A DNA stretch of 32,000 bases from NCBI RefSeq assembly GCF_000020385.1, contig NC_010814.1, positions 3,600,001 through 3,632,000 of the forward strand, written 5' to 3'. This stretch comes from Trichlorobacter lovleyi SZ. Its GTDB lineage: Bacteria > Desulfobacterota > Desulfuromonadia > Geobacterales > Pseudopelobacteraceae. A model generated the notes under the pieces. It saw only the letters and a list, made by a program, of their open reading frames with translations, had not been told where the DNA came from and made no database searches. A program made the position numbers and the translations under genes. Shown one piece after another: positions 1-32,000 of the stretch (its first letter is position 1; each line of letters starts with the position of its first letter).

Positions 1-1086
1 ACCTCATCCCGACATGCGGCGGCAATTCTGGAGCTCCTGACCGCAATCAGCCCGGAGGCCATACTGGCACACAGATCCGGCTGCGAATCACCAGCAGGGC
101 ATGCACTGATCGAACTTGACTACGCCCGACAGATCAGCCCCTCCGTAAGCGGTGCCGTTTTTTCCAGGGAAAACTCCTTTGGACCAGGCTCACGAAAGAG
201 CGAGTTTGGATATCGCATCCTGTCATCACTGGCCTCCCAGGGGTGGAACGTTGCGCTCTTGCCCTTAAAAGAGCTTTTCAGTTATACCACTCCCTGTCGG
301 CAGGATTTTGTGCTGGTGGATGTGGGGCTGTTCTGGAAGCTGCCGCCGCTTGAGCAGCTCCATGAGCTGCTTGCGTACCTGAAACGTCATTTTCGCAAGA
401 TCATCATCTTTGAACCGGACCCGTGGACCGGGTTCTATGATGAACTGTTGCGGTCAATTGCTGATCGTGTAGATTATATCTGGGGGTTCACCCCGGATTG
501 GGAATTGACACAAGATCCGTGCTACAGGGGTAAAAGCATCATGTTCCCCAATGTCGGCGGATTCGAACAGCTGGCGCCGCCGCACCGGCATGAGCTTGAC
601 TGGAACAGTTGCAGCTTCAACTTTACCGGCTCGGTACAGGGCTACAACCTGAACAGGGTCTACTGGATCCTTGAGGCGATCCGACGTAACCTGCCACTCG
701 AGGTCCAGATTACGAATCCAGGTGTTGATGACGGCCTGGACTGTGAAAGTTCACTGAAGCTGTACATCCGGAAGCTGCTCTCCTCCCATGCCTCACTTAA
801 CCTGGCAACGCGCAAGGATGGCTCACGGATGCTGACCGGCAGGGCGGTTGAGGTCATCAGCCTGAACCGGTTGCTGATTCAGGAATGGTGCCCCGCACTG
901 CGACGGTATTATGTTGAAGGAGAGCACTTTCTGGAGTTCAAAGAGATTGAGGGACTTGCCACCAGCATCCACTTCCTGGAATCACACCCCAGGGTTGCAC
1001 AGACAATCTGCTCCCAGGGACATCAGTTCTATCTGGAACGGTATTCGTGCCGGAAAATGGTAGAACATATCCAGACCCTGCTCTGA
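1..1086 (+). CDS. Glycosyltransferase-like protein, 5'-truncated by the window edge (CgeB / Glyco_trans_1_2-like C-terminal domain)
   Basis: Frame 1 has no stop from nt 1 to the TTG at 259 used by the ORF track, so the CDS most likely begins upstream of the window. Stop is TGA 1084-1086. The C-terminal segment (GRAVEVISLNRLLIQEW..YYVEGEHFLEF..HPRVAQTICSQGHQFYLERYS) follows the same pattern as the C-terminal halves of the CgeB-like domains in the next three genes (NMRxFEA..G.LLL....F..GE....Y......R..IA..G......Y). Confidence 0.6.
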   Translation, partial: TSSRHAAAILELLTAISPEAILAHRSGCESPAGHALIELDYARQISPSVSGAVFSRENSFGPGSRKSEFGYRILSSLASQGWNVALLPLKELFSYTTPCRQDFVLVDVGLFWKLPPLEQLHELLAYLKRHFRKIIIFEPDPWTGFYDELLRSIADRVDYIWGFTPDWELTQDPCYRGKSIMFPNVGGFEQLAPPHRHELDWNSCSFNFTGSVQGYNLNRVYWILEAIRRNLPLEVQITNPGVDDGLDCESSLKLYIRKLLSSHASLNLATRKDGSRMLTGRAVEVISLNRLLIQEWCPALRRYYVEGEHFLEFKEIEGLATSIHFLESHPRVAQTICSQGHQFYLERYSCRKMVEHIQTLL

Positions 1087-1097
1087 TATGGGGCAAA

Positions 1098-4000
1098 ATG
1101 CAATACCGTTACCTAGTCGCTCATGAGGTTCAAGTGCAGAAAGAAAACAACCAATTACATATCTGGCTGGCCTACGTAAACTACCCGATCACTACGGCCG
1201 TGTACCTGAAAAGGGCCTTGCAGCAGATGGGACATCAGGTCACCACCATTGGCCCACGCCTGCCGGAAAAGGCGATTGCCCTGTGGGGGCTTCAGAACAT
1301 GAAACTCCCGTTGGATCCTCAGGACATTGACACCTCCTTTACCCCTGATATGGCTGAAATATGGGAGTCGACACCGCCTGTAGAGCGCCCGGACCTGTAT
1401 CTCTGGGTGGAGTCGGTCAACGGACATAATCCGCAGAATCTGCAGCAGATTACCTGTCCCAAGGTCTGCTATCTGATCGATACCCATTACCATCTGGACC
1501 ATGCCATAGAGATTGCGCAGCACTTTGATTACGCCTTTATTGCCCAGTTGGTGGACCTGGAGGAATTCAGGACGCTACACCCGCAGGTTCACTGGCTGCC
1601 ACTGGCCTGCGACCCTGAAATCCATGGCAGGCAGACGGTCGCAAAGGAGTATGAGGTAAGCTTTGTCGGCGGCATGAATGAGCGCAGGGCAGCCCTGCTG
1701 GATCACCTGGCAAGCCGCTTCAATGTTCATCACGAGCGTTCCTTCTGGACCGATATGGCCCGCACCTTTTCCGCCACCCGGATCGTGCTGAATGATGCCA
1801 GTTATGACGACCTGAACATGCGCTTCTTTGAGGCGCTTGCCGCAGGCTCGCTGCTGCTCTCAAACCCGACCAGCGGCAGCGGACAGGACATCCTGTTTCA
1901 CGATGGCGCCGATTATGCCTGCCATCATGATCATGACCTGCTTGAGATAGTACAACGTTATCTGGACAACGAGCCACTGCGTGAACGGATTGCCGAGCAG
2001 GGCAGGCATCGGGTACTGGCTGCCCATACCTACCAGCACCGCATGGTTGACCTGCTTGAGGTCATCAGCGGCAGGAAACAGGATACCTTCTCAACCTTTG
2101 AACTGCGGGAGCGTTCCCATACTGGGCCTGTGTCACCAGAGGCGGCTACACCCGTGGACCAGCCCCGTATCCGTTCCATCATCTCAACACGCCACGTCAG
2201 CCAATGGCCTACCTTTCAGATGGTCCATGAGTGGGAGGACATCCTGGGCGCACAACTCGGGGTACCATTCCGACCGCTTGACGATTCATGCCTGCTGCCT
2301 GCCGGGGACGCGCCTGAACAAGGCTTTGACCTCCTGTTCCTGCCGCTGGCCAGCGAGCTTGCAGACTATGCCCGCAACCGCAGCCTGATCCCGATTGTCA
2401 TGGATCTGTGGCGGGACGGTTTTGAGGCCTTCATCCGCTGCGCCCCGCAGTTCAGACTGGTTTTTGTTACGAACCTGCAGGCCTACCAGGAACTTTCGCC
2501 GCAGCTCCCGAATCTGCGCTATCTGCCCTTTACGCTTGCAGACCAGTACCTTGACTGCACCCTGCCTGCCAAGGACATTGACATCATCCACTATGGACGG
2601 CGCAATCCGGTGCTGGATCAGTACCTGCACCAGTTCTTGCAGGATCACCCCGCTTGTCACGCCGTCATCACCGATAAGAGTGACAATGGCGAGGCGATCC
2701 TGATTCACTCGAACAGGTGGGGAAGCCTCGGGGTAAGCGACTCACGCAAGAAATTCATGGATCTGCTCTGCCGCAGCCGTATCAGCCTGGTTTCAACTGT
2801 GGGCATGGATGGTTCCCGCCAGACCGGCGGTATTGACCCGGTCAGCCCCCGTTTTCTTGAAAGCATGGCAGCCGGCTGCCATCTTGTCGGCCGGATTCCT
2901 GATAACCCCGAATTCAGGGACAGCGGTCTGTTCCGGCTCTGCCACCACGTTGACAGCTACCAGCAGTTTGAAAAGACCGTACTCGCCCTGCTTGCCGAAC
3001 CGGCCAATCAGCAACGGGACTACCGCCCGTTGCTGGCACAACGACTCACATCGTCACTGGTTCCGATCATACGTGCAGCCGTATCGTCACTGCACAATGA
3101 CTCAGACTCATACACGCCTACCGGGGGTATCATGCACTGTATCAATCCTCGCACTGATCTGGAAGACGGCCTTAAGACGCTCAAGGTGGTCGAGACGGAG
3201 AGGCCTTCATCCGCACAATTCAGCAACTATCAGGCCATGGCTGATGTGATTGCCTATCACCTTGAATTTCATGGCCTTGATTGCTTTGACCTCTTTAGCA
3301 CCATCCAAAATCAGCAAAAGCACCCCACTCAGGTGCTACTCATTGCCGCGTTGGAGCTATCATATCGAGGACAGCCTGATGCGGCCTGCTGCTTGGCATA
3401 CCGGGCCATGCAGATGAATCCAGCAGATAGCGATATTGCCTTATTTTATGCCGACCAGCTACGCAGGGCCGGCAGGTTGGGCGAAGCGAGGGCCATTGCC
3501 GCACAGCACACAACTCACGACACCGAGTTCAAGCTGTCACAAGCCGTTCTTGACACCTGCGAGATTGACGAGACCCTGCCACTGCGCCAAGAACACTATC
3601 ATGTGCTGCATGCGGCCCATACCCTGCTGCGGCCGCGTCGATACGTCGAAATCGGCATCTGCAGCGGCAAATCCCTTGCGCTTACCAAACTCGGGACCTC
3701 CGCCATTGGAGTCGACCCAATGACCGCCTGTGCTGATCAGCAGTTTTATAAATCACCCGAGAGTTCACCGGCGCTCTTTCAGATGACCAGCAATGATTTT
3801 TTTGAGCAGGCCCTGATGGAAAAAACCTGGAGTTCAGAGCCGTTTGATATGGCCTTCATTGATGGCCTGCACCTCTTTGAACAGGCCCTGATGGACTTCA
3901 TCCACCTGGAGCAGCGTGCCGCCCCGAACTCCATCATCTTCATGCACGACGGTCTGCCGGTCAATATTATTGGAGCTGAGCGGAAGCGTACCAGCATGGT

Positions 4001-4283
4001 CTGGACCGGCGATGTCTGGAAGGTGATCCTCTGCCTGAAAACCGTCCGTCCGGACCTCGATATCATCACCTTCCCGGTCAGACCGTCGGGGCTGACCATG
4101 ATACGAAAGCTGGACCGGAACTCAAAGCTGCTTGCAACACAGTTCGACACCCTGGTGGCCCACTTCATGGATGCAAAGCTCCCCGCTTCACTGCCTGAAC
4201 GGTTTCAGCTGCTCAAGGTAACCGACGAAGCGCCGGAGGTGACCCTGCAAAAAGTTGTCGCTCAGCAAGGAGCCTTTCAATAA
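1098..4283 (+). CDS. Multidomain protein: CgeB-like GT + second GT-B-like domain + TPR-like helices + C-terminal class I SAM methyltransferase fold
   Basis: Long ORF. The track start 1047 overlaps the upstream gene, and 1098 is the first in-frame ATG after the upstream TGA. ORF-track aa ~37-345 are paralogous to the N-terminus of the next CDS (LAYVNYPITTAVYLKRAL, PDLYLWVESVNGH, CYLIDTH, WLPLACDPEIH, SFVGG, LNMRFFEALAAGSLLLS, AHTYQHRM). aa ~385-690 form a second GT-B-like unit (IIHYGRRNP, SPRFLESMAAGCHLVG). aa ~735-830 are TPR-like. aa ~845-1078 have an MTase fold (YVEIGICSGKS, FIDGLH, VWTGDVWK). TAATG stop/start overlap with the next gene. Confidence 0.8.
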   Translation: MQYRYLVAHEVQVQKENNQLHIWLAYVNYPITTAVYLKRALQQMGHQVTTIGPRLPEKAIALWGLQNMKLPLDPQDIDTSFTPDMAEIWESTPPVERPDLYLWVESVNGHNPQNLQQITCPKVCYLIDTHYHLDHAIEIAQHFDYAFIAQLVDLEEFRTLHPQVHWLPLACDPEIHGRQTVAKEYEVSFVGGMNERRAALLDHLASRFNVHHERSFWTDMARTFSATRIVLNDASYDDLNMRFFEALAAGSLLLSNPTSGSGQDILFHDGADYACHHDHDLLEIVQRYLDNEPLRERIAEQGRHRVLAAHTYQHRMVDLLEVISGRKQDTFSTFELRERSHTGPVSPEAATPVDQPRIRSIISTRHVSQWPTFQMVHEWEDILGAQLGVPFRPLDDSCLLPAGDAPEQGFDLLFLPLASELADYARNRSLIPIVMDLWRDGFEAFIRCAPQFRLVFVTNLQAYQELSPQLPNLRYLPFTLADQYLDCTLPAKDIDIIHYGRRNPVLDQYLHQFLQDHPACHAVITDKSDNGEAILIHSNRWGSLGVSDSRKKFMDLLCRSRISLVSTVGMDGSRQTGGIDPVSPRFLESMAAGCHLVGRIPDNPEFRDSGLFRLCHHVDSYQQFEKTVLALLAEPANQQRDYRPLLAQRLTSSLVPIIRAAVSSLHNDSDSYTPTGGIMHCINPRTDLEDGLKTLKVVETERPSSAQFSNYQAMADVIAYHLEFHGLDCFDLFSTIQNQQKHPTQVLLIAALELSYRGQPDAACCLAYRAMQMNPADSDIALFYADQLRRAGRLGEARAIAAQHTTHDTEFKLSQAVLDTCEIDETLPLRQEHYHVLHAAHTLLRPRRYVEIGICSGKSLALTKLGTSAIGVDPMTACADQQFYKSPESSPALFQMTSNDFFEQALMEKTWSSEPFDMAFIDGLHLFEQALMDFIHLEQRAAPNSIIFMHDGLPVNIIGAERKRTSMVWTGDVWKVILCLKTVRPDLDIITFPVRPSGLTMIRKLDRNSKLLATQFDTLVAHFMDAKLPASLPERFQLLKVTDEAPEVTLQKVVAQQGAFQ

Positions 4284-6304
4284 TGCAGCAAGCTGCCTCC
4301 CCTACTGTCCTGTTGGCCTACGCCCCTTACCCGGTGACAACGGCGGTGTACCTCGAACGTGCGCTACGGAAAAGCTGCCGGGTAACCACCGTCGGACCGC
4401 TGTTTCCCGATGAAAAAATTGAGGAATGGCACCTGCAGAATCTGCGGGTACCGTTTTTCCAGCAGGATATTGTCAGCTCTCCAGAACCTGACATGGCCGA
4501 ACTACTGGCTGCCAACCCCTCCCTTGTACCTGATCTGTACCTGTGGGTGGAGTCGGTGGGCGGCCATTTCCCCCAGAATCTTGCCGCCCTCCCCTGCCCC
4601 AAGGCCTGCTATCTGGTTGATACCCACCTCAATCTGGACTGGCATCTGCAGTGGGCCGGGCAGTTTGACTTCATCTTCCTTGCCCAGCGGGAATACCTGG
4701 AACGCTTCAGGGCAGCGGGGCTCAACGCCCACTGGCTTCCGCTTGCCTGCGACCCGGAGATTCATAGCGCAGCCAACGTCGTGAAACAGCATGATCTCTC
4801 CTTTGTGGGCAGCCTGTCCCACAATCCCCGCCGCCAGGAGCTGCTGCGCCGGCTTGATGAGACCATCGGGGTCTATTGTGAACGTTGCTGGTGGGATGAT
4901 ATGGCCCAGGTCATCTCCTCGTCACGGATAACCTTCAACAGCGCCGTCAAAAACGACCTGAACATGCGTGTCTTCGAGGCACTCTCCATCGGCAGCCTGC
5001 TGCTGACCGACCCTGCCCCCAACAGTGGCCTGGAAACCCTGTTCGCGGATGGCGAAGATCTTGCCCTCTACCGCACCGATGGAGAACTGCTTGAAGTAGC
5101 TGATTTTTACCTCAGAAACGACCTGCTGCGGGAACAGATCGCCGCCAGGGGTCGTCAGATCGTCCATGCCGCCCACACCTATGACCACCGCATTGCAGAA
5201 CTGCTGGATGTCATGACCGGCAAGCGGGCAACCACCTCAACAGCGGAAGAGCTGCGGGCACGTTCCCTGGCGCCACTTTCTCCGCCCTTCAGCTCCATCA
5301 CCGGCAGCAGCATCGATCTCAGCAGCGCTTCCCGGAGCTTTGTGATCGCAGTCCTCGACTACTCACCGGCCAGCCAATACAATATTGCCACCCTCTTGCA
5401 GGATCTGGAGCAGATACCGGGCGATGTCCTGGTCATCTTCAACGACGAAGGGGTGGCTGCCGACCTGAAAGGGCATCCCCGCATCACCCGTTATGCCATC
5501 ATGAAGGAGAACGTCGGGGTGGCGCGGGCCTGGAACGTGGGTATCGAGATGGCCGCAACTCCCCATGTCTTTATCCTGAATGCCGACCTGCACCTGGAGC
5601 TTGACGCAGTTCGTGAAATGGAAGAGCGGCTCTGCGCACTTGAACGGGCCGCCTGTACCGGCCCGCAGGGATCATTTGTCAATTACCGCCTGACCAAAGA
5701 TTATCTCTACTTTGACAAAGGCACCTTTGACCAGCCGGTTGCCGTGGATGCGGTCTCCGGCTTTCTGTTCGCCGTCAAACGCAACCTGTTCGGACCCGGC
5801 GGACTGAAGTTTGAAAACGCCTACACCCCCTGCTACTTTGAAGAATGGGATCTGGGACTGCAGATCCGCCAACTCGGCCTGCAAAGCTGGATTGTCCCCA
5901 CCAGCGCCTACGAACATCACTGGGGTGGCAGCATCGCTGCCCGGCGTGAAATCAGCTGTATGGGACGGAGTGAATCAGCCCAGGAGATCCTGCAACGCAA
6001 CCGGGTCCTGTTCCTCGCCAAGTGGCGCAAGGCCGGTCATCTGCCGGAAAGCGGCTGGCGGAGCTTTGGTCCGGACTACGCCCTTACAATGCTACAGCAG
6101 GGCCAAACCGACCACGCCCGGGCCGTGATCCAGTCGCTGGCCATCAGTTATCCCGACATCCCCGAGGTACAGGCACTGGGCATCGGCCTGGCCCTGCAGG
6201 ACAACGATATGAAGATCGTAGCCGAGATCAGCAAACGACTGCACCGGACTGATCCCCGCTTTGATCTGGAAAAATTCCTGAAGAAGGCGGTGGCGCAACC
6301 ATGA
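4283..6304 (+). CDS. Bifunctional glycosyltransferase: CgeB-like GT domain + GT2 (GT-A) domain + short C-terminal helical/TPR-like tail
   Basis: 673-aa ORF. ATG 4283 shares its A with the upstream TAA. aa 1-315 carry the CgeB-like motifs (LLAYAPYPVTTAVYLERAL, PDLYLWVESVGGH, CYLVDTH, WLPLACDPEIH, SFVGS, LNMRVFEALSIGSLLLTD, AHTYDHRI). aa ~345-580 are GT2-like (FVIAVLDYSP, VLVIFNDEG, VARAWNVGIE, FILNADLH, EEWDLGLQ). Confidence 0.85.
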   Translation: MQQAASPTVLLAYAPYPVTTAVYLERALRKSCRVTTVGPLFPDEKIEEWHLQNLRVPFFQQDIVSSPEPDMAELLAANPSLVPDLYLWVESVGGHFPQNLAALPCPKACYLVDTHLNLDWHLQWAGQFDFIFLAQREYLERFRAAGLNAHWLPLACDPEIHSAANVVKQHDLSFVGSLSHNPRRQELLRRLDETIGVYCERCWWDDMAQVISSSRITFNSAVKNDLNMRVFEALSIGSLLLTDPAPNSGLETLFADGEDLALYRTDGELLEVADFYLRNDLLREQIAARGRQIVHAAHTYDHRIAELLDVMTGKRATTSTAEELRARSLAPLSPPFSSITGSSIDLSSASRSFVIAVLDYSPASQYNIATLLQDLEQIPGDVLVIFNDEGVAADLKGHPRITRYAIMKENVGVARAWNVGIEMAATPHVFILNADLHLELDAVREMEERLCALERAACTGPQGSFVNYRLTKDYLYFDKGTFDQPVAVDAVSGFLFAVKRNLFGPGGLKFENAYTPCYFEEWDLGLQIRQLGLQSWIVPTSAYEHHWGGSIAARREISCMGRSESAQEILQRNRVLFLAKWRKAGHLPESGWRSFGPDYALTMLQQGQTDHARAVIQSLAISYPDIPEVQALGIGLALQDNDMKIVAEISKRLHRTDPRFDLEKFLKKAVAQP

Positions 6305-10190: not shown

Positions 10191-11102
10191 ATGACCATCA
10201 TTGATGAAATCCTTGAAAGTAACTACTTCACCGACAACCCTCCGGTACTGCTCGATATCGGGGCCTCCACTGCGATCCACCCCAAATGGCAGCCGTTGGC
10301 CAGGCACTCGATCTGTATCGCCTTTGATGCCGATGACCGGGAGATCGGTTATGCGGCCACCGCTTCAAAGGGGTATAAGAAACTGCACCTGTTCAACAGT
10401 CTGGTAAGCGACGGGGCAGCTGCGGAGGCAGATTTCTTCCTGACCAGGTTCCCCCTCTGCTCAAGCCTGCTTGAGCCGGACCAGCAGAGCCTTGCACAGT
10501 ATAATTTCGGCGACCTGTTTGAGCTGGACAAGGTCGTCCGGCTGAAAACCGTGCAACTGAGAGAGGCCCTCAAAGCGGCAGGTGTGGCCAAAGTAGACTG
10601 GTTCAAGACCGACTCCCAGGGCACTGACCTGCGCCTGTTCAACAGCCTGGGCAACAACCTGATCAAACAGACGCTGGTGGCGGAATTTGAACCGGGTATC
10701 GTTGACGCCTACAGGGGGGAGGATAAACTGCACGACCTGATGAGGTTTATGGACAGCCAGCCTTTCTGGATGAACGACATGCATATCAAGGGGACCCAGC
10801 GGATCAGTCAGGAGGCCCTGCGCAGATGTTTTCAGGATCATACCGGGCAGCTCAGGGAGGGCATGTCGCTCAAGACCTCCCCCTGCTGGAGCGAAGTCTC
10901 CTATTTTAACAGTTTTGGGCCTGAAGCCGACTGGCTGAACCAGCGGGATTACCTGCTGGGCTGGATATTTGCCCTGATTGAAGGGCAGTATGGTTTCGGG
11001 CTGGACATTGCGCTGCAAGGCGGAAAACGATTCGGGACAGCGGTCTTTGAACAGCTGGCCGAATGCTCCGTTGAACTGCTGACCAGAGACAGCTCGAGAT
11101 AG
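10191..11102 (+). CDS. FkbM-family-like SAM-dependent methyltransferase (tentative)
   Basis: 303-aa ORF with a purine-rich stretch (aagagagag) upstream of the ATG. LLDIGAST resembles the FkbM DIGAN.G motif, and VDWFKTDSQGTDLRLF resembles the FkbM (I/L)K.D.EG.E..(V/L)L motif. Confidence 0.6.
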   Translation: MTIIDEILESNYFTDNPPVLLDIGASTAIHPKWQPLARHSICIAFDADDREIGYAATASKGYKKLHLFNSLVSDGAAAEADFFLTRFPLCSSLLEPDQQSLAQYNFGDLFELDKVVRLKTVQLREALKAAGVAKVDWFKTDSQGTDLRLFNSLGNNLIKQTLVAEFEPGIVDAYRGEDKLHDLMRFMDSQPFWMNDMHIKGTQRISQEALRRCFQDHTGQLREGMSLKTSPCWSEVSYFNSFGPEADWLNQRDYLLGWIFALIEGQYGFGLDIALQGGKRFGTAVFEQLAECSVELLTRDSSR

Positions 11103-25522: not shown

Positions 25523-25527
25523 GGCGA

Positions 25528-26454
25528 TCAGACGCCGGACAGAAAAGTCCGGGCTTCAGTATTCCACGGTTGCAAGGCAAGCACCTTGTTAATAAATATG
25601 CGAGACTGTTCAGGCAGTTTCGCTTCCTTAGAGAAGATTGCCAGCGCTGTCAGCACCTCAACATCATTGGGATATTCCTTTATCAGCTGGGTATAGATTT
25701 CAACCGCCTCATCAATCATCCCACAGGCTGTATAGTACAAGTCTGCCAGGTTCTTGCGATACATAAGATTTGCCGGTTCACACTTCACCGCCTGTTCATG
25801 GTGAAAACGGGCTTGGTCATACTCCCCCCGCCGGCTGTAGACAATGCCCAGGTTATTGTGGGCCAGTGCGCTGGCAGGATTTTGGGCCAACAACTGTTGC
25901 AGGGGTGCCAGCTCCTCATCCTGCTGTGGCAACAATGCAGGCTGACGGTATTCTGCCGCCGAAACCGGCCCGTCCAGACGGGCCAGGATCTCCCTCACCT
26001 CAGCATTGCCCGGCTCCAGCTGGTTGGCTTTACGGTAAAAGGCCCGTGCTTCTTCAGGCTGGCCGACCGTCTCACTGATATTACCCAAAGCGGTCAGGAT
26101 CTCAAAGTCATTCGGCCAGGCGTTCAGCAGTTCCGTCAGCATCTCAATCGCATCGTCGGTCCAGCCCAGGACGACAAAGTAGAATTCTGCCAGATTCTTG
26201 ATAACGGTCGGATTATTCGGTTGCAGCCGATTGGCCTTCTCGTAATGGGCCAGCGCAAGCAGGTCATTACCGGACTGGTGATAGAGCACCCCCAGATCGT
26301 TATGGGCAAGCGGTACATCCGGAAACATCTTCAGGAAAGTCTTGATCTCCGCGATCGCCTCCGCGGACTCTCGTGACAAACAGGTCCTCAGACGCTGGTA
26401 GGCGTTCTGAGCTTCATATTGATTGTACGGAATAACGGAGGTGGTCATAAACAA
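25528..26454 (-). CDS. Stand-alone TPR-repeat protein (internally duplicated ~110-aa module)
   Basis: 308-aa ORF with RBS AAGGAG 9 nt upstream (minus strand). It holds two collinear halves: AHNDLGVLYHQSGN...PNNPTVIKNLAEFY...WPNDFEILTALG and AHNNLGIVYSRRGE...PANLMYRKNLADLY...YPNDVEVLTALA. Confidence 0.85.
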   Translation of the reverse strand: MFMTTSVIPYNQYEAQNAYQRLRTCLSRESAEAIAEIKTFLKMFPDVPLAHNDLGVLYHQSGNDLLALAHYEKANRLQPNNPTVIKNLAEFYFVVLGWTDDAIEMLTELLNAWPNDFEILTALGNISETVGQPEEARAFYRKANQLEPGNAEVREILARLDGPVSAAEYRQPALLPQQDEELAPLQQLLAQNPASALAHNNLGIVYSRRGEYDQARFHHEQAVKCEPANLMYRKNLADLYYTACGMIDEAVEIYTQLIKEYPNDVEVLTALAIFSKEAKLPEQSRIFINKVLALQPWNTEARTFLSGV

Positions 26455-26521: not shown

Positions 26522-28531
26522 TTATTGCGCTGTCGTGCTGTCTCTACGAGCCATATAGCGGGCAATCCGCTCCAGTCGCTGTTGATAGCGTTGTTGGTAA
26601 CTCTCAAATATCTCAGCAATCTCCGGATCAGCAATGTGGCGCTTATTGGAGATTCCTTCCGGAGTATACCAATAAAGGCCTGTTATTATTGGTATATGCA
26701 ACAACTGAAACCGCTCGGCAATCCGTAGCCACATCTCCTGATCACCGATGGCAAGATACTTTTCATTAAAGTAGCCAACGTAGTCATGCACCTGTCGTCG
26801 CCACATCGGATGGGGACCGACACAACAATTTTCGATATGATGCTCAAAGGAATACGGTGGCCAAGCAAACTGGCCACAGCGATCATGCCGGGCAAAGGTC
26901 TGATGGGGGTACAGCGTCAGCCAGGTGTCACCATAGACCAGCATCACTTCAGGATTTTCATCCAGCGCCTTTTTCAATAACTCACAGGCGGTGGGCGCCA
27001 AACGGTCATTCGTGCTGAACGAAAGCAGGTAACTCCCTTGCGCGGCCTTGATGGCCACGTTCCAGGCGGCATAAATACCAATTCTCTCGGAAGTTCGTAT
27101 ATATTTAATGTTTCGGTGTTTCCCCTGAAATTCTTCAATAATTATCCGCTCATTTTCCGGCGAGGCAGCATCCACGACAACCACTTCTATCTGCTCGAAG
27201 ATCGTCTGGGCAACCAGGTCTTCCAGACACTCCCGCATGAACGCCTCTGAGGCATAGGTGGTAACAATCACCGATACGACAGGCTTAACCTCCTGCTGCA
27301 TAGCAAAACTCTTCTGCATTGATGATATTGCCGGGTTATGCAACTCCGAAACAAGCGAAAGTAGCGGAGTAATGGTCTTGTCAAGATTCAGATGATTTGC
27401 AAAAAATTGTTCGGCATTCAAACCGCTTTGTTCAAGATCAGATCGACTCAGGTTAGCTAACACCCGCCCTGTATCGGTCACGCTGCCAACAACCCAGCCC
27501 AACCCAAACTGACGGACATGTCTGCTCATTTCTCCGATCTCGTTTACCACTATTGGCAGACCATATTGGAGGTAGGTTGCAATCTTGCCAGATGCAAGCC
27601 CTATATGTTCCAAGTTCTTACCATCAATTGGATGGTCTTTATGGTAATAGGGTGTATAAAAAGCGCAGCCAGCATCGCATGCCTGAATAAGTTCGCCGAG
27701 CTCCGAAAACTCCAGGGGGCCAAATGGCGAGACTAACAATCGGTTATGCGGAAAACTTGCAACTACATCAAATACATCAGACGGATAACAGCCATAACGG
27801 TGGTGAATCAGCAGCGACCAGTCATCCGGCCAGGTGTGAAGACTGCGTAACAACTCGTGAATACCGGTCCATATAGCTGTGATTTCACCCATATACAACA
27901 GTATCTTTTGTTTTTGTGGCAACGAAAAATGGTGATGGATACGATAATTTCTACTGATGTGCTTAACACCACGACCGGCAACTGGGATTTTTACGATTCG
28001 TTCAAGCGGGATGCCATTTTCCAAAGACAAATCAGCAGCACGCAGGTCATCCTGGGCAATTGCAAACAGCAGATTTCGTGAGGCCTCAATCTCCATCTGT
28101 TTCTGCCAGGAGGAAACCACATCAGCAAAATAGAGTTCATATGATATCAATGCATGTGGAACACCCTGCTGTGCGGCAACAAGCGCAGCTTCAACTATTC
28201 CCAGATCAACGCCAATAATCAGCGTATATAGCGGCAGCTCTTTTGTAATATAATTTTGCAGTGTCCCAGAATTTTCAATGCATCCGGGGGGAAGCAAAAA
28301 GAAGAAGTCAGCAGGATAACCGGTACGGCCTTGGCGAGGAATACTGATAAAAGTAGCCAAACTGTGGGGTGTACTCGCTGGTATTCCAGGTTCACCAGGG
28401 CTATAGATATCAACCAGATAGCCGTTATTGCACAGAATATCCACCATACCCCAAAGATTAGGATTGTTAGAAATGTTACCTTCGGGATGAATGAGCATGA
28501 TACGTGCTCTGTCAGCACTGGCTACTCTCAT
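26522..28531 (-). CDS. Bifunctional glycosyltransferase: N-terminal GT-B-like domain + C-terminal GT2 domain
   Basis: The track ORF starts at 28555. ATG 28531 forms an ATGA overlap with the upstream stop and is preferred. The C-terminal ~250 aa are GT2 ([42 protein letters not shown]). The N-terminal ~400 aa are GT-B-like ([24 protein letters not shown]). Confidence 0.8.
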
Positions 28532-29277
28532 GAACAGACCACCAAGGCATTCCAAGTATCAAAACCAAGTGGTCTAGCGGTAAGCCACTCTTCAGCCCGC
28601 ACCACCTCAAAACCAGCCTCCTGCAACATCAAGGAAAGTTCCGGCAGATACAGATAGCGCATTCGATGTGTTTCCCTCACCTCCTGGACTTCTTTGGTCA
28701 GCAGATTCCTTGCAAAAAGATGATAGTTTACATCAACCAGATTCTGATTGGGATGCATGACGGGGCTGGCTATCCGGGTTATGCTGATTGTATCATCGAC
28801 AAGCTCTTTTACCCGCACAGCAGGCCTGTCAGTCAGAACTGCGGGGCCATACCAACAGTCAAAGATAAAAATCCCACCAGACTTAAGGTGTTGTCGAGCC
28901 GTGCCAAATGCAGCCATCAAATCAGCGTTTTCAGCTTGGTAGCTCATGACGTGAAACAAGGAGATAATCACGTCAAAGGTCATGTCCAGACGAACCGTGC
29001 GCACATCATCCTGCACATAACGAACAGCAGCATATCCCTCTGCCGCTTGACGTGCAGCAGCCAGCATATCTTCTGAAAGATCAACACCGGTCATGGCATA
29101 GCCCTTCTCTGACAGGAGCCGGTCATGCCTGCCTGAACCACAACCCAGGTTCAAAATCGAATGTGCTGCTGGACAATGTTGCTGTAGTATATCGTGAATA
29201 TATGCGACTTCAGCAGCATAGTCTTTATCGCGATACAGCAAATCATAGTATCGGGCATACTCACCAAAAAGACTCAT
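28528..29277 (-). CDS. Class I SAM-dependent methyltransferase, TylM1/DesVI-like (candidate amino-sugar N-methyltransferase)
   Basis: 249 aa. [21 protein letters not shown]...[11 protein letters not shown]...[13 protein letters not shown]...DDVR...[13 protein letters not shown]...[16 protein letters not shown] is collinear with my recollection of TylM1 (YDLVHQGKGKDY..EA...LLDVACGTGMH...GLELSADML..AR...GDMR...FSAVTCMFSSIGH...DGVVVVEPWWFP). ATGA overlap with the upstream aminotransferase gene. Confidence 0.7.
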
Positions 29278-30380
29278 TTCAGACTCTCCCGAACAGTAGT
29301 AGTTACAGAAACTATCTGTTCATCGGTTATGGTCAAACCGCTGGGAAGATACACCCCCTGCCGAGCCAGCCGGTCTGCCACCGGAAACTGTTCACCCTGG
29401 AAAAGACCCATTTTCTGGAAAACCGGCTGCTGATGCATGCCAAGAAAAAAAGGACGCGTTTCAATATGCGCTTCGCGCAAGCGGTCTGCCAACATTATGG
29501 CCGTCACCCCCGTGCTCTCACCGACGACAACGCCCAATACCCAATAGACACTCTTGGCCCACGCCTCTTCGACCTGCATGCGTATCCCTGCAACATCCCG
29601 TAACTGCTCGGCATAAGCGGCAGCAATGGCCCTTTTACGGGCCACGATTCCATCCATCCGATCAATCTGTCCGACCCCCAGTGCCGCCTGGATATTCGTC
29701 ATTCTATAATTATAACCCAGTTCATCATGCAAAAAACGCTGCTGCTTCTGAAAACAGAGATTCCGCAGACTCCGTGCCCGCTCAGCATGTTCCGGTGTAC
29801 GCACCAGCACCATCCCGCCCTCGCCGGTAGTCACCAGCTTGTTGGCATAAAAACTGAAAGTACTGATATCCGCCAGGCCACCGCAGCGGCGTCCCTTGTA
29901 TTCCGCCCCGTGCACTTCAGCGGCATCTTCAATGACCGTTAGATGGTGCCTGCGGGCAACGTCCGTAATCAAATCCATATCAGCAGGATGACCGTAGATA
30001 TGTACTACAAGGATAGCCTTTGTTCTTGGGCCTATCTTTGCCTCTATCTGACCTGCATCCATCTGCCAGTTGTGCGGCTCACTGTCCACAAGCACAGGAA
30101 CACCACCTGCGCGTACTATCGACTGGGCAGGAGAGATAATGGTGAAGGTTGGCATAATAACTTCATCGCCCGGCTGAAGATTGAGCAGTCCAACCGCCAG
30201 ATCCAGCGCAACAGAACCATTACTGACGGCGATACCAAACGGCATGCCACAATAAGCAGCCCAGCGCTGTTCAAACAGATCCAGATACATGCCCGCCGAT
30301 GATATCCAGCCTGACTTCAGTGCATCATTTACCAGGGCAATGTCACGTTCCGTTATACACGGTTCAGAAACTGGAAGCAT
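29274..30380 (-). CDS. DegT/DnrJ/EryC1/StrS-family PLP-dependent sugar-nucleotide aminotransferase (perosamine-synthase-like by motif)
   Basis: The ATG at 30380 overlaps the upstream TGA by 1 nt (TGATG); the track used the TTG at 30383. Motifs: SEPCITERD, SGWISS, VSNGSVAL, GDEVIMPTFT, VHIYGHP, the active-site Lys context FSFYANKLVTTGEGGM, YNYRMTNIQAALGVGQ and ETRPFF. Confidence 0.9.
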   Translation of the reverse strand: MLPVSEPCITERDIALVNDALKSGWISSAGMYLDLFEQRWAAYCGMPFGIAVSNGSVALDLAVGLLNLQPGDEVIMPTFTIISPAQSIVRAGGVPVLVDSEPHNWQMDAGQIEAKIGPRTKAILVVHIYGHPADMDLITDVARRHHLTVIEDAAEVHGAEYKGRRCGGLADISTFSFYANKLVTTGEGGMVLVRTPEHAERARSLRNLCFQKQQRFLHDELGYNYRMTNIQAALGVGQIDRMDGIVARKRAIAAAYAEQLRDVAGIRMQVEEAWAKSVYWVLGVVVGESTGVTAIMLADRLREAHIETRPFFLGMHQQPVFQKMGLFQGEQFPVADRLARQGVYLPSGLTITDEQIVSVTTTVRESLK

Positions 30381-30826
30381 CAAAAGCGCTCCTTCTCTAC
30401 CAAGCCGGTATAGGGCCCCTGCTTCAGTTCAAAAAAAATCGTATCCTCAAGACATTTCAGGCGATGACCGCCAGAGACCAGCAGGATGATATCACCCTCT
30501 TCAAGGTTCCAGATCCCAATCAGGCACTTATCCAATCCATACAGTTCCACCTCCGCCCTGCCCTTACGAATAAGCAATGTTTCCGGAGTACCCACCAGAT
30601 GGCGTTGCAGCGGTAGATGGGTATGCCGGGCAACCACGCCATCCTTTGGGTAGACCACAAAGCCGGCTTGCTGATAATAGCTGTCCGGGGAGATGAAAGT
30701 CGTGGTTTCCGGCATATAATCCTTACGGATAATGGTAGCAATATGCTGGTCGTGCCAGACAACATGCTCCACAAGATGGGATGGAGTGTATTCTTCTGAA
30801 ATGATTTGATCAGCTTCTGTTGGCAT
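30380..30826 (-). CDS. Cupin-fold protein, candidate NDP-sugar ketoisomerase/epimerase (specific activity not assignable)
   Basis: 148-aa ORF with GAGGAA upstream of the ATG. It has an HxH cupin motif (GVVARHTH) and a second motif EGDIILLVSGGH. It sits between methyltransferase and aminotransferase genes with overlapping stops and starts. Confidence 0.55.
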   Translation of the reverse strand: MPTEADQIISEEYTPSHLVEHVVWHDQHIATIIRKDYMPETTTFISPDSYYQQAGFVVYPKDGVVARHTHLPLQRHLVGTPETLLIRKGRAEVELYGLDKCLIGIWNLEEGDIILLVSGGHRLKCLEDTIFFELKQGPYTGLVEKERF

Positions 30827-31985
30827 AGGTTCCTCTATATGGGGTCCACATGGTATACAACCTGTCTTGAGGTCGCAGACGATCTAAAACCTTCTGGAGC
30901 ATTTTTTGCCGATGATAGCGGTACATTGCACAAATGATATAGATACATGTGTTCTTTGGCGTGAAGGTGTCCCACGCTTGCACCTTGATGCCGTTAATCA
31001 GAGACTGATGTTTATGGGGGTAATCATCAATCAGGGACTTACAGCTTGCTTCCCACTGCCCCTCCCATATTTGTTGCAGAACGCCACTGACCGCAAGAAA
31101 CACATTGCTTGCCCCATAGAAGCAGAGTTCAGCCCCCTGCTCGGTCAATTCCCGCCATTCTTGCTGGCTCAACACGACTTTTTCACTAAAAGCCCGGATT
31201 CTCTCCAGCCTATCCGACCAGCCTGTCCCCATCAGGCAGGTCCCACCTTTTTTTTTCCGGTAAAGAACTGTCAATTGGTATCCGCGATCAATGGCAACCA
31301 GCTGCAATCCCGCCTGTTCTCCCAGTAGTGCCAATGATTTCCCGGAGTAGTGCCCGACATGTTCCATCACCCATGGATCGATCCCTTCATCAAGATCGTT
31401 CTCCAGGTCCGGGACCTCCACCATCAGCAGGCCGTCTTCACGTAGAAAAGTAGCAATATGCTGCAAAAATGCCTGTGGGTAGAGCATGTGTTCCAGAACC
31501 TGCCGGGCAACTAACAAGTCAAAACTGGATGAAAGCTGAATCTGGCGAACATCTCCAAAAATGGTTGGTATCCCCACAAACGGCAAAGGCGAGCTTTCCA
31601 CCCCAAGCAGCTGAAGATCTGGGTAAAATGACTGAAGACCTGCCAGAAAGTCCCCCCTGTTCGAGCCCACCTCAACTACATGGCGAATCTGCGACCAGTC
31701 GCAATGCAGATCAAGAAAAGCCTTGGACATCTCTGCACGTGGATCTACCAGAGGAAATTCGTGTAGATCAGCACTCAGTAGCTGGTAAGCGTCATAGGCG
31801 GGGGCCATCCAGGTCTCGAATTCCCGGGGTTGAGCAAAGGCAGTAGCATTCCAGACAAAATGACAGGCCTCACATCCCTCCATAAAAAGTGGTCGAGTTT
31901 TTTCAGAATACATATGGACACTGCCAAGCTGCAGTTGACGGTCAAATAATGCTACAGCTGCATTTCCACAAATCGGGCAATTCAT
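30810..31985 (-). CDS. Zn-ribbon + class I SAM methyltransferase + C-terminal Rossmann-like domain (TylC3-type NDP-hexose C-methyltransferase-like architecture)
   Basis: 391-aa ORF with AGGA 6 nt upstream of the ATG. N-terminal 4-Cys ribbon (CPIC...CEAC), MTase core (VVEVGSNRGDFL, LVARQVLEHM, GLLMVEVPD) and C-terminal FYGASNVFLAV...LIDDYPHKHQSLINGIKV. This resembles the Methyltransf_13/23/14 arrangement of sugar C-methyltransferases. Confidence 0.55.
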   Translation of the reverse strand: MNCPICGNAAVALFDRQLQLGSVHMYSEKTRPLFMEGCEACHFVWNATAFAQPREFETWMAPAYDAYQLLSADLHEFPLVDPRAEMSKAFLDLHCDWSQIRHVVEVGSNRGDFLAGLQSFYPDLQLLGVESSPLPFVGIPTIFGDVRQIQLSSSFDLLVARQVLEHMLYPQAFLQHIATFLREDGLLMVEVPDLENDLDEGIDPWVMEHVGHYSGKSLALLGEQAGLQLVAIDRGYQLTVLYRKKKGGTCLMGTGWSDRLERIRAFSEKVVLSQQEWRELTEQGAELCFYGASNVFLAVSGVLQQIWEGQWEASCKSLIDDYPHKHQSLINGIKVQAWDTFTPKNTCIYIICAMYRYHRQKMLQKVLDRLRPQDRLYTMWTPYRGTYANRS

Positions 31986-32000
31986 AGCTAGTCCTGTTAT

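Follow-up and report, generated by a model that had tools for sequence, protein, structure and literature searches.

A probable flagellin O-glycosylation island of soluble, multidomain glycosyltransferases in Trichlorobacter lovleyi SZ

In the genome of Trichlorobacter (Geobacter) lovleyi SZ, two short flagellin genes and the gene for the flagellin regulator FlbT lie among genes for glycosyltransferases (GTs), methyltransferases, and sugar-nucleotide enzymes, which raises the question of what this large enzyme set modifies. The stretch of DNA analyzed (the window, 32 kb) is a section of an island that extends beyond both window edges, to a length of at least 47.7 kb. We suggest, with a probability of roughly 70%, that the window is the central part of a flagellin O-glycosylation island. 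Most likely it is an oversized version, variable among strains, of known systems in which flagellin is glycosylated within the cell and only then exported. The principle is already known; what is new here is the scale, the extent of domain fusion, and the lineage.

Gene content of the window and its flanks

The inventory was drawn from the gene layout and from Pfam, NCBIfam, PDB, and fold searches with 32 proteins across 47.7 kb, 21 in the window and 11 in the flanks (accessions for the locus, ACD97069-ACD97080). An earlier sequence-only reading had listed two 275-aa flagellins, flbT, and GT, methyltransferase, TPR, and tailoring genes, and the searches returned this list nearly item by item. 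The 16 GT domains of the window, 14 recognized via Pfam and two via predicted fold, fall into the classes that had been counted by eye: four CgeB-like (PF13524; g1, g2, g3, g4), three other GT-B (g8, the g17 N-domain, and the g2 middle domain), seven GT2/GT-A (four in g15, the C-termini of g3 and g17, and the GT8-like g7), and two GT41 (g9, g10). The six class I methyltransferase domains and the one B12-radical-SAM domain were also recovered, four of the class I domains being solid (the C-terminal MT24 of g2, the MT11 of g4, g18, and g21) and two sub-threshold (the g4 N-terminus, 19.7 bits, and the FkbM-like g5, about 16 bits in two libraries). That two methyltransferase calls and the GT8 call stand at or under threshold counts against the glycosylation reading. 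TPR modules and three sugar-nucleotide tailoring enzymes complete the window, and at least 19 GT domains are present across the at least 47.7 kb. Two points correct the earlier reading: g1 is open from base 1, and the island passes both ends of the window.

On the forward strand, g1 (1..1086) is the C-terminal 362 aa of a CgeB-like GT-B of about 458 aa (37.8 bits) whose start precedes the window; the full-length gene is present in a sequence 99.99% identical to the window (L011). The g2 ORF (1047..4283; 1078 aa, called as 1049 aa from base 1134) joins a CgeB-like GT-B (111 bits), a second, divergent GT-B, a TPR stretch (weak TPR_19), and a Methyltransf_24 domain (PF13578, 52 bits); the model of its middle domain (aa 346-770; pLDDT 77.7) has a GT-B fold and matches SenB, GtfA, and SdgB at E about 6e-8. 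A CgeB-like GT-B (101.8 bits) is followed by a C-terminal GT2 (PF00535, 23.9-25.9 bits) in g3 (4283..6304; 673 aa), which has a syntenic homologue in G. argillaceus. The largest protein of this block, g4 (6301..10167; 1288 aa), carries the weak MT24-like N-terminus (PF13578), a CgeB-like GT-B (127.5 bits), a class I methyltransferase (PF08241, 52.9 bits), and a B12-binding radical SAM module (PF02310, 59 bits; PF04055, 75.6 bits), whereas in other strains it is 818 aa long and lacks the radical SAM domain. Then follow g5 (10191..11102; 303 aa), a probable FkbM-type methyltransferase on weak matches (TIGR01444, E 0.0095; PF05050, E 0.014); g6 (11115..12122), an NDP-sugar 4,6-dehydratase/epimerase of the SDR family (PF01370, 176.5 bits), whose top NCBIfam match, dTDP-glucose 4,6-dehydratase, is under the equivalog cut-off; g7 (12194..13267; 357 aa), a borderline GT8-like GT-A (PF01501, 24.4 bits vs a cut-off of 24.3); and g8 (13212..14300; called as 339 aa from base 13281), a GT4-type GT-B (PF13692, 40.6 bits; PF00534, 35.1 bits) that is syntenic and 69% identical in G. 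argillaceus.

At the right end, on the reverse strand, g17 (26522..28555; 658-677 aa) has a Gtf3_C-like GT-B N-domain and a C-terminal GT2 (PF00535, 69 bits); the N-domain model (pLDDT 90.8) has a GT-B fold matching MshA, sucrose-phosphate synthase, and BshA at E about 1e-14, and PF26337 (Gtf3_C) is present in its homologues. Its neighbors are two class I SAM methyltransferases, g18 (28528..29277; 249 aa; PF13649, 65.8 bits) and g21 (30810..31985; 391 aa; PF13489, 56.8 bits), and between them the DegT/DnrJ/EryC1-type NDP-sugar aminotransferase g19 (29274..30383; PF01041, 370.6 bits) and a 148-aa cupin, g20 (30380..30826), a possible sugar-nucleotide isomerase or epimerase by its weak WbuC-family match (TIGR04366, 30.9 bits vs a cut-off of 42). 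Neither g19 (317 bits against the LegC-family model, cut-off 420) nor g6 reaches the Leg/Pse equivalog cut-offs.

TM-like segments (19-residue window, Kyte-Doolittle >= 1.6, zero charged residues) were found in none of the 21 window and none of the 11 flank proteins, in line with the earlier remark that long hydrophobic segments are lacking. Its further statement that genes for export, polymerization, priming, and nonulosonic acids are absent agrees with the Pfam and NCBIfam searches, which gave no match to Wzx, Wzy, ABC transporters, polyprenyl-phosphate transferases, NeuB/PseI, CMP-transferases, or Maf; Wzz and initiating transferases were likewise not found among the 32 proteins across 47.7 kb. 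These results bear on the proposal that the product is a polysaccharide of the cell surface built on a lipid carrier (O-antigen, capsule, or EPS), for which the genes for priming, flipping or ABC export, and polymerization lie elsewhere in the genome. WbsX-, GT9-, GT4-, and WbuC-like families, seen in the window and flanks, are frequent in LPS clusters, the JGI labels on homologues of the g17 N-domain sometimes read 'O-antigen biosynthesis protein' or 'cell wall biosynthesis', and the low-GC variable cassette described below is reminiscent of O-antigen loci. For a polysaccharide locus of the same size, however, the lack of TM segments, Wzx, Wzy, ABC, and Wzz across 47.7 kb would be very unusual, and TPR-GT fusions indicate protein substrates (PMC7591256, PMC9638930); with the flagellin synteny also speaking against it, we regard a lipid-linked product as very unlikely. 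Counted against flagellin glycosylation, in turn, is that fliD, fliS, and flgK/L were not found within the 47.7 kb examined.

Flagellins and candidate protein-directed transferases

The two flagellins, g11 (18314..19141, forward; ACD97076) and g12 (19277..20104, forward; ACD97077), are both 275 aa long and 88% identical, and g11 is of the D0/D1-only Caulobacter type (Flagellin_N and Flagellin_C). Ser and Thr make up 24% of g11 (24-26% in the pair), and its closest solved relatives, the 273-aa C. crescentus flagellins FljM, FljN, FljK, and FljL, align with it end to end. Caulobacter flagellins are substrates of FlmG. Glov_3371, a flagellin that may be one of these two, is among the proteins detected in G. 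lovleyi on Fe(III) citrate (PMC6113397). Sigma-28-type promoter-like sites on the forward strand precede flagellin 1 (TCAA-N16-GCCGAATAA, 18190..18218) and flagellin 2 (TCAA-N16-TCCGATGA, 19186..19213), and a relaxed form of this motif lies 5' of 35 of 88 related flagellin genes vs 1 of 88 shuffled controls. Such sites are confined to the flagellin genes, none preceding a GT gene in the window, and co-regulation of flagellins and GTs therefore draws no support from promoters. Flagellin 2 is followed by a terminator-like GC-rich hairpin and T-run (20143..20168, forward), by g13 (20210..20854, forward), a 214-aa Gln-rich protein without a Pfam or NCBIfam match that is conserved in this place, between flagellin and flbT, and has BLAST homologues at 39 of 80 related flagellin loci, and by g14 (20859..21278, forward), which is FlbT, the post-transcriptional regulator of flagellin synthesis (PF07378, 154.6 bits), found at 64 of those 80 loci.

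Three proteins flanking this group, g9, g10, and g15, resemble known protein-directed GTs in sequence and domain order. The first two are paralogues (32% identity) with N-terminal TPRs and a GT41 domain of OGT/SPINDLY type: g9 (14315..16105, reverse; 596 aa; PF13844, 142 bits, and TPR families), which NCBI names 'O-linked GlcNAc transferase, SPINDLY family', and g10 (16102..18105, reverse; 667 aa; PF13844, 150.7 bits), which is 100% identical to a T. lovleyi SZ protein and diverges in transcription from the gene for flagellin 1. In both, the whole catalytic domain aligns with SPINDLY and a bacterial OGT; residues 254-663 of g10 match 434-846 of plant SPINDLY at E 5e-111 and the T. terrenum OGT at E 3.5e-83, so that g10 has both the full catalytic domain and the N-terminal TPRs of GT41 enzymes. 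In architecture both also compare with FlmG of Caulobacter and Brevundimonas, whose TPR domain, placed before a GT-B, binds flagellin (PMC7591256): g9 has the length of FlmG, the presumed substrates are 275-aa flagellins nearest those of Caulobacter, and FlbT is found in both systems. They differ in that FlmG uses pseudaminic or legionaminic acid as donor, whereas GT41 domains are NDP-sugar users and the T. lovleyi window and flanks lack a NeuB/PseI-type synthase or CMP-transferase. We consider g9 a candidate flagellin-initiating transferase.

The third protein, g15 (21215..25522, reverse; 1435 aa; PF00535, 316.9 bits over four stretches), has GT2 domains at about aa 18-240, 318-535, 614-785, and 1043-1234 and a C-terminal TPR region at about 1250-1400. 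Its fourth GT2 matches the GT domain of Listeria monocytogenes GmaR (PDB 22ao) at 89.7 bits with the DADE motif retained, and in both proteins, which are soluble and encoded with flagellar genes, TPRs follow directly. GmaR is a flagellin O-GlcNAc transferase, adding a single GlcNAc, as well as the anti-repressor of MogR. Unlike GmaR (637 aa), g15 has three extra upstream GT2 domains; the two show no match past the GT domain, g15 ending some 185 aa after the TPR start, without the linker and anti-repressor domains, and there is no MogR at the locus. By this homology g15 is a candidate flagellin-directed multi-transferase. Beside it, g16 (25528..26454, reverse; 306-308 aa), a stand-alone TPR protein (many TPR families, e.g. 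TPR_17, 98.8 bits) with syntenic homologues in G. argillaceus and others, is possibly an adaptor or scaffold.

Since GmaR is bifunctional (PMC9638930), many domains here might instead be degenerate or regulatory, with g15 and the TPR proteins acting as GmaR-like anti-repressors or chaperone-like flagellin binders and the modification a simple one of one or a few sugars. The overlap of the flbT gene with the 3' end of g15 fits this, as does N-x-D rather than D-x-D at the metal-binding position of g15 GT2 domains 1-3. On the other hand, L-N-x-D variants are known in active GT2 enzymes of the rhamnosyltransferase type, and g15 lacks the very domains by which GmaR acts as anti-repressor. Moreover, the GT and methyltransferase domains of the locus mostly score far over Pfam cut-offs and are 45-70% identical in other genera, which points to purifying selection on many of them. 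We regard a largely degenerate or regulatory set as very improbable. Taken together, the SPINDLY/OGT alignments of g9 and g10, the GmaR homology of g15, and the flagellin-FlbT synteny give the locus the look of cytoplasmic, lipid-carrier-independent flagellin glycosylation by soluble TPR-bearing GTs, as had been proposed.

Synteny across phyla and variation among strains

A flagellin-based search gave 80 species-level loci, of which 39 have a GmaR-like domain, 19 have GT41, and 49 have any homologous GT within 10 kb. Among the 49 loci informative for synteny (FlbT present and at least 6 kb of sequence past it), 35 have a GmaR-like domain, and in 31, from several phyla, the GmaR-like megaprotein gene lies directly 3' of flagellin-FlbT, convergent and at most 1.5 kb from FlbT, including Geobacteraceae, Syntrophaceae, Nitrospirota, and Desulfobacterales. 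The comparison with relatives that had been called for thus places g15-type genes in synteny with flagellin-FlbT across phyla. Counted against glycosylation are Geomonas and Citrifermentans relatives with similar flagellins and none of these GTs nearby, a locus with an array of at least 11 GT41 genes and no flagellin in 19 kb (L094), a GT41/TPR locus without flagellar context (L095), and a literature search for flagellin glycosylation in Geobacter in which no paper was found. GT41/TPR proteins are widespread, and their link with flagellin is not constant.

Such GT41 arrays also suit the possibility that the flagellin genes are merely embedded and that the enzymes have a different target, be it some other protein, cytoplasmic or secreted, or a polymethylated polysaccharide of the cytoplasm akin to the methylmannose and methylglucose polysaccharides of mycobacteria, which are made by soluble GTs and methyltransferases and are not exported. 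The all-soluble mix of GTs and methyltransferases, the absence of export genes, and the GT genes without sigma-28 sites agree with this, and models of the g17 N-domain (rank 15) and g2 middle domain (rank 6) match, alongside many other GT-B enzymes, the methylmannose polysaccharide mannosyltransferase 7qsg; these matches reflect the generic GT-B fold (TM 0.47-0.59, 13% identity). Against it stand the conserved position of the GmaR-like megaprotein, the specific homology to a proven flagellin transferase, and the presence of the same GT classes after a Selenomonas flagellin gene and in enterobacterial flagellin islands. A target other than flagellin is therefore, in our view, unlikely.

Variation among strains, which is more easily understood for a product exposed at the surface than for one in the cytoplasm, follows the borders of a core. 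The conserved core starts at 10186-10191, with g5 as its first gene; from 10191 to 27274 it is 99.1-99.6% identical across MAGs, and the flanks are replaced. At about base 27274 the N-domain of g17 has been exchanged between strains at the domain boundary, and GC in the right cassette is 46-53% vs 55-60% elsewhere. Flagellin glycosylation islands typically show such replaced flanks and low-GC cassettes (PMC5109656, PMC13317340).

Relation to known systems and a proposed pathway

On homology and synteny, we suggest a pathway in which two short, Ser/Thr-rich D0/D1-only flagellins would be expressed from sigma-28-type promoters under FlbT control and bound in the cytoplasm, via TPRs, by soluble protein-directed transferases (g9, g10, and the C-terminal, GmaR-like GT2-TPR part of g15), perhaps assisted by g16, before the flagellins pass the type III channel of the flagellum. 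The same transferases would place the first sugars on Ser or Thr, and the remaining GT domains (the three further GT2 of g15, the CgeB-like and other GT-B of g1-g4, g8, and g17, and the GT8-like g7) would extend the chain on the protein, stepwise by single sugars and without a lipid carrier. Methyltransferase and B12-radical-SAM domains, several fused to GTs in one polypeptide, may methylate the sugars, and a modified amino-deoxyhexose donor may come from g6 (4,6-dehydratase), g19 (aminotransferase), g20 (cupin), and g18/g21 (methyltransferases). Strain-to-strain swaps of the outer cassettes, sometimes exactly at domain boundaries, would diversify the glycan on the filament surface. The sequence-only reading inferred one unusually large, heavily methylated glycan, but several short or alternative glycans would fit so many GT domains equally well, and the narrow flagellar export channel argues against a single huge one.

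That characterized flagellin systems use few enzymes, as the sequence-only reading held, is oversimplified: Campylobacter jejuni has about 50 flagellin glycosylation genes and a-type strains of Pseudomonas aeruginosa have 14. Its view that the architecture had not been described for flagella stands for scale, degree of fusion, and lineage but not for the elements, since TPR-GTs such as GmaR and FlmG, fusions of GT41 to methyltransferases, and hypervariable flagellin islands have all been published and Selenomonas has the same arrangement of multi-GT2, GT41, and TPR. With 16 GT domains in 32 kb, the window exceeds the flagellin glycosylation islands published so far 3-5-fold in GT content. Those of enterobacteria encode 1-3 GTs, GT41-methyltransferase fusions, and FkbM methyltransferases (PMC4875605, De Maayer & Cowan 2016); there the GTs are of a single family, whereas T. 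lovleyi has two GT41 and 14 other GT domains, and its methyltransferases are fused to CgeB-like GT-B and not to GT41. Islands of Geobacillus (up to 5 GTs in 13-30 kb; PMC5109656), Clostridium, Campylobacter, and Pseudomonas, including hypervariable ones of 23-29 genes (PMC13317340), are likewise flagellin-adjacent, low in GC, and mosaic among strains, with a mix of GTs, sugar-nucleotide enzymes, and methyltransferases and sequential cytoplasmic glycosylation. Compared with their 13-30 kb and up to 5 GTs, T. lovleyi has at least 47.7 kb and at least 19 GT domains, megaprotein fusions of 1000-2000 aa, TPR modules across many proteins, and radical SAM enzymes, and it lacks Maf and nonulosonic-acid genes.

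The architecture is shared and not unique, comparable loci being present in twelve related species and in Selenomonas. In S. ruminantium (L093) a flagellin gene is followed by genes for a 947-aa double-GT2, a GT2, a 1123-aa GT41, a second GT41, a stand-alone TPR protein, a GT4, and a GT2, a set that matches T. lovleyi in enzyme classes and in its use of fusions. This member of the Negativicutes differs in its 435-aa flagellin, the lack of FlbT and, within 19 kb of the locus, of methyltransferases, and a classical fliD-fliS-fliT cluster. The flagellin of S. sputigena, studied by Rath et al. in 2018, reportedly carries complex O-glycans.

Flagellin genes among glycosyltransferase blocks

The 21 tightly packed genes of the window include three blocks of glycosylation-type genes, as delimited by gene calls: g1–g8 on the plus strand (1–14300), g10–g9 on the minus strand (14315–18105), and g21–g15, also on the minus strand (21215–31985). 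The two flagellin genes (g11 and g12), g13 and flbT (g14) lie on the plus strand between the second and third blocks. Exact sequence look-ups matched window proteins to accessions ACD97069–ACD97080. Pfam and NCBIfam scans confirmed the flagellins and FlbT; the flagellins are each 275 aa long, 88% identical to one another and 24–26% Ser+Thr, and their closest solved structures, end to end, are the 273-aa Caulobacter flagellins. As in flagellin glycosylation islands, a glycosyltransferase (GT) gene stands directly beside a flagellin gene: g10, encoding a GT41 protein, is divergent from flagellin 1 across a gap of 208 bp. On the other side, g15 is convergent with flbT, and just g13 and flbT separate it from flagellin 2. 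The product of g13 (20210–20854) is a Gln-rich protein of 214 aa that matched no family even in a relaxed-threshold Pfam scan; FlaF neighbors FlbT in alphaproteobacteria, and by analogy of position g13 may be a functional analogue of FlaF. An Rfam scan and a tandem-repeat scan gave no result.

The window encodes 16 GT domains, 14 recognized by Pfam and 2 by predicted structure, and with NCBIfam included these analyses reproduced exactly the count made in the sequence-only reading. The Pfam set comprises four CgeB-like GT-B domains (PF13524; g1, g2, g3 and g4), six GT2 domains (four in g15 and one each in g3 and g17), a borderline GT8-like domain in g7, a GT4 domain in g8, and two GT41 domains (PF13844; g9 and g10). 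The N-terminal domain of g17 (pLDDT 90.8) and the middle domain of g2 (pLDDT 77.7) are predicted to adopt a GT-B fold; neither has a Pfam match itself, and homologues of the former carry PF26337 (Gtf3_C). Pairwise BLAST found no similarity between the g2 middle domain and the CgeB domain of g3, and relaxed-threshold Pfam scans of g20, residues 786–1040 of g15 and the g17 N-terminal domain returned nothing.

These GT domains occur together with sugar-nucleotide enzymes and methyltransferases, as is looked for in a flagellin glycosylation island. The former include an SDR 4,6-dehydratase/epimerase (g6), a DegT aminotransferase (g19) and a cupin with weak WbuC-type resemblance (g20), none of which reached the NCBIfam equivalog cut-offs for pseudaminic or legionaminic acid synthesis. 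From sequence by eye, six class I methyltransferase-like domains and one B12-radical SAM domain had been proposed; the B12-binding radical SAM domain of g4 and four methyltransferase domains (the g2 C-terminus, g4, g18 and g21) are solid, and the remaining two (the g4 N-terminus and the FkbM-like g5) are sub-threshold. The g4 N-terminus showed no similarity to the Methyltransf_24 domain of g2 in pairwise BLAST.

Soluble proteins resembling flagellin transferases

The 1435-aa protein g15 provides the closest tie to a known flagellin transferase. Its residues 1043–1234, within the last of its GT2 domains, align with residues 11–184 of GmaR (89.7 bits, E 1.7e-24) with the acidic, metal-binding 'DADE' motif kept, and TPR families follow directly at residues 1257–1391; Listeria GmaR likewise has a GT2 catalytic domain and then TPR, in that order (PMC9638930). 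Beyond the GT domain, g15 has no PDB match except generic TPR and ends at residue 1435. The linker and MogR-binding anti-repressor domains of GmaR are not present; the resemblance of g15 to GmaR is thus confined to the transferase module, and the two are not orthologues. The same GT2 domain also resembles the peptide glycosyltransferase SunS. A reading of g15 as a processive, chondroitin-synthase-like polymerase was rejected, as the PDB match covers residues 18–109 only (E 8e-10) and is too generic.

The paralogous proteins g9 and g10 (32% identity) both carry N-terminal TPRs and score 142 and 150.7 bits with PF13844, for which the gathering score is 25. Residues 254–663 of g10 align with residues 434–846 of SPINDLY, spanning its whole catalytic region (E 5e-111), and Thermobaculum OGT was matched at E 3.5e-83. 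Since g9 and g10 are closer in sequence to SPINDLY, an O-fucosyltransferase, than they are to OGT, one may speculate on this weak hint that they attach a deoxyhexose and not GlcNAc. In layout, an N-terminal TPR followed by a C-terminal GT-B domain, the pair can be likened to FlmG of Caulobacter, which binds flagellin with its TPR domain and transfers the sugar with its GT-B domain (PMC7591256; bioRxiv 10.1101/2022.03.25.485807). FlmG is paired with a pathway to CMP-pseudaminic or CMP-legionaminic acid; in the window and 15.7 kb of flanks, by contrast, scans found no equivalog of NeuB/PseI, PseB/C, LegB/C or a CMP-transferase. The locus also differs from those with Maf-type flagellin transferases, since Pfam and NCBIfam scans detected no Maf domain among the 21 window proteins.

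The sequence-only reading had also claimed that exporter, polymerase, priming and nonulosonic-acid genes are missing, which the Pfam and NCBIfam scans bore out. Neither window nor flanks contain the parts of a lipid-carrier glycan pathway, that is, a priming transferase, a flippase, ABC exporter or polymerase, and membrane proteins: no Pfam match was found there to Wzx, Wzy, an ABC exporter, a priming transferase or an oligosaccharyltransferase, and no TM-like window occurs in the 32 proteins of window and flanks, with no credible TM segment in any of the 21 window proteins. A lipid-linked polysaccharide whose export genes lie elsewhere in the genome is a less likely product of the locus than a flagellin glycan, given that no membrane protein is predicted across 47.7 kb and that g15 has homology to GmaR.

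These two observations also count against a second rival, in which the target is something other than flagellin, for instance a cytoplasmic polymethylated polysaccharide. The mycobacterial cluster for such polysaccharides is small and consists of a ManT-type GT, 1-O and 3-O methyltransferases and a hydrolase. The ManT structure 7qsg matched the models of the g17 N-terminal and g2 middle domains at the level of a generic GT-B fold (TM 0.47–0.59, 13% identity). In favor of a non-flagellin target, GT41/TPR proteins are also found in non-flagellar contexts, and no sigma-28 site precedes any GT gene of the window. A motif search located sigma-28-type promoter-like sites for flagellin 1 (18190–18218) and flagellin 2 (19186–19213), and a relaxed sigma-28 motif precedes 35 of 88 related flagellin genes, compared with 1 of 88 shuffled controls. 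The strict E. coli consensus TAAA-N15-GCCGATAA had zero matches; the relaxed form T[CA]AA-N15-17-[GTC]CCGA[TA] had three, with 1.8 expected by chance. These were only the two flagellin promoters and one intragenic site, and they lend no support to co-regulation of the GT operons. Sigma-54 promoters were rejected (three one-mismatch matches, all intragenic and fewer than expected by chance), and generic sigma-70 and terminator scans remained at background level. We nevertheless regard a target other than flagellin as less likely, with flagellin synteny across species a further point against it.

Variable flanks and a conserved neighborhood

The island spans at least 47.7 kb, with neither border reached, and contains at least 19 GT, at least 9 methyltransferase and 4 radical SAM domains. 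On the left, where the reading frame of g1 is open from base 1, a sequence 99.99% identical to window positions 1–16304 (L011) extends 5.7 kb further and adds two methyltransferases, a GT4, a Methyltransf_24 protein, a B12-radical SAM protein and the end of a 1212-aa TPR protein. On the right, three sequences 99.96% identical to positions 20810–32000 (L007–L009) extend 10 kb further. There the island continues well past base 32000, since a 1972-aa protein fusing LIC12162, class I methyltransferase, radical-SAM/SPASM and WbsX GT domains (L007:3–5642) is followed by genes for a radical SAM protein, a GT9, a methyltransferase and a TPR protein.

Comparison among T. lovleyi metagenome-assembled genomes (MAGs) and metagenome contigs showed a core, 10191–27274, of 99.1–99.6% identity, with different flanks replacing those of strain SZ in four of the compared loci (L002, L003, L005 and L006). 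The left breakpoint (10186–10191) is the intergenic junction of g4 and g5, and the right breakpoint (about 27274) corresponds to residue 427 or so of g17, where its GT-B domain meets its GT2 domain. The replacements for g17–g21 in other strains are a 707-aa protein whose N-domain is of GT4 type, an 817-aa protein combining methyltransferase and polysaccharide deacetylase, or a megaprotein exceeding 1755 aa; on the left, some strains have a shorter g4 (818 aa) that lacks the radical SAM domain, together with a separate methyltransferase. The strain-variable right cassette (26522–31985) has a GC content of 46–53%, compared with 55–60% in the rest of the window, which suggests that it was horizontally acquired. 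This hypervariability and atypical composition are as in published flagellin glycosylation islands, of which low GC and mosaic content are hallmarks (PMC5109656, PMC13317340), and they are in keeping with a product that is exposed at the surface and subject to diversifying selection. In one MAG an IS3-family transposase gene (HTH_Tnp_1 + rve; L002:276–1414) lies directly left of g5, where SZ has g1–g4.

Synteny was assessed at 80 loci (L013–L092), one genome per species, found with a flagellin query, by BLAST of the window domains against their ORFs. Some homologous GT is present in 49 of these loci, g13 and a GmaR-like domain in 39 each, and GT41 in 19. The GmaR-like domain occurs in 35 of the 49 loci that have FlbT and at least 6 kb beyond it, and in 31 of those 35 the GmaR-like ORF is convergent with FlbT at a distance of no more than 1.5 kb; the synteny comparison that the sequence-only reading had proposed thus placed a GmaR-like ORF beside FlbT in 31 of 49 informative loci. 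Such loci belong to Geobacteraceae, Syntrophaceae, Nitrospirota/Thermodesulfovibrionales and Desulfobacterales, and the megaproteins in them reach 2710 aa. G. argillaceus keeps the order g3-g8-GT41-GT41-flagellin-g13-FlbT-multiGT2/TPR-TPR-GT2 at 45–70% identity and has further TPR-GT fusions beyond it. The island type is not peculiar to strain SZ, as 12 other species-level genomes have at least eight homologous GT domains within 10 kb of flagellin (T. lovleyi has ten). A locus of Selenomonas ruminantium (L093:2253–16895), in which fliD-fliS-fliT-flagellin is followed by double-GT2, GT2, 1123-aa GT41, GT41, TPR, GT4 and GT2 genes, is a Negativicutes counterpart of the window architecture. Geomonas and Citrifermentans have related flagellins without such GTs nearby, and the distant GT41 homologues P0062 and P0039 have no flagellin linkage within 19 kb, so that GT41/TPR alone is no predictor of a flagellin target.

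That the domains are mostly regulatory or degenerate, a third rival, is less likely in view of their strong conservation, which also argues against the lipid-linked and non-flagellin alternatives; the flagellin synteny, the GmaR homology of g15 and the lack of membrane proteins speak against all three. FlbT is usually treated as an alphaproteobacterial flagellin regulator; here it stands beside Caulobacter-type 275-aa flagellins in 64 of the 80 loci, including Desulfuromonadota, Syntrophia-like, Nitrospirota, Ignavibacteriota and Bacteroidota MAGs.

A possible route of flagellin modification

We suggest that the flagellins would be made from their sigma-28-type promoters and bound in the cytoplasm by the TPR-bearing transferases g9, g10 and g15, perhaps with the stand-alone TPR protein g16, and that these transferases would O-glycosylate Ser/Thr residues. 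The remaining GT domains would lengthen the chains one sugar at a time, methyltransferases, some fused and some free-standing, would methylate them together with the radical SAM enzymes, and a local amino-deoxyhexose branch (g6, g19–g21 and g18) would provide a donor sugar, after which the glycosylated flagellin would leave via the flagellar type III system. Glycan size does not follow from how many GT domains there are: the data would be explained just as well if several short or alternative glycans were attached at many sites, and the need to pass the export channel speaks against very large chains. We give a chance of roughly one in five to the fullest form of this proposal, namely that Geobacteraceae and several other anaerobic lineages build long, strain-specific, polymethylated oligo- or polysaccharides on a minimal D0/D1-only flagellin by means of lipid-carrier-free, cytoplasmic, TPR-tethered, fused GT-methyltransferase megaenzymes, that the glycan coat takes over the function of the missing outer filament domains, and that new glycans arise via swaps at domain boundaries.

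A literature search found no paper on glycosylation of Geobacter flagellin. The sequence-only reading had held the architecture to be undescribed for flagella, which is too broad, as each of its principles is already in the literature: the GmaR and FlmG transferases, flagellin islands with GT41, islands that are hypervariable, and flagellin glycans bearing methyl groups. In enterobacteria, flagellin islands have 1–3 GTs each and include fusions of GT41 with methyltransferases as well as FkbM methyltransferases (PMC4875605); those of Geobacillus have up to 5 GTs in 13–30 kb (PMC5109656). What does set the locus apart is the number of GTs (16 domains in 32 kb), the extent of fusion (into proteins of 1000–2000 aa, many of them with TPR modules) and the radical SAM enzymes.

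If flagellin is the substrate, this is among the most enzyme-rich flagellin glycosylation loci seen, and with its enzymes all soluble it would be a natural system for the limit of cytoplasmic protein-glycan complexity that still passes a type III channel. It could also reveal how TPR modules direct many transferases to one substrate, and glyco-engineering could make use of the modular logic suggested by the exchanges at domain boundaries from strain to strain. Flagella are important when Geobacter-type bacteria reduce metals and when T. lovleyi is used for bioremediation; a flagellin has been detected in T. lovleyi during growth on Fe(III) citrate. Filament glycans differing by strain could affect susceptibility to phage or grazers and attachment to surfaces. 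Conservation of the module of flagellin, FlbT and GmaR-like megaprotein in Desulfuromonadota, Syntrophia-like bacteria and Nitrospirota suggests that flagellin modification of this form is widespread, and unstudied, in anaerobes; mass-spectrometric proof of large polymethylated filament glycans would raise the interest further.

Three minor observations concern gene arrangement. In a 3.86-Mb genome, TPR-GT41 paralogues, at least 11 in number, stand in tandem along with one methyltransferase, with no flagellin in 19 kb (L094:1–19315). The 3' ends of flbT (plus strand) and g15 (minus strand) overlap convergently by 64 bases (21215–21278), an overlap also present in T. lovleyi contigs; in G. argillaceus it measures 11 bases. 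A metagenome contig has three 275-aa flagellin genes in tandem (L005:9092–11845), compared with two in SZ.
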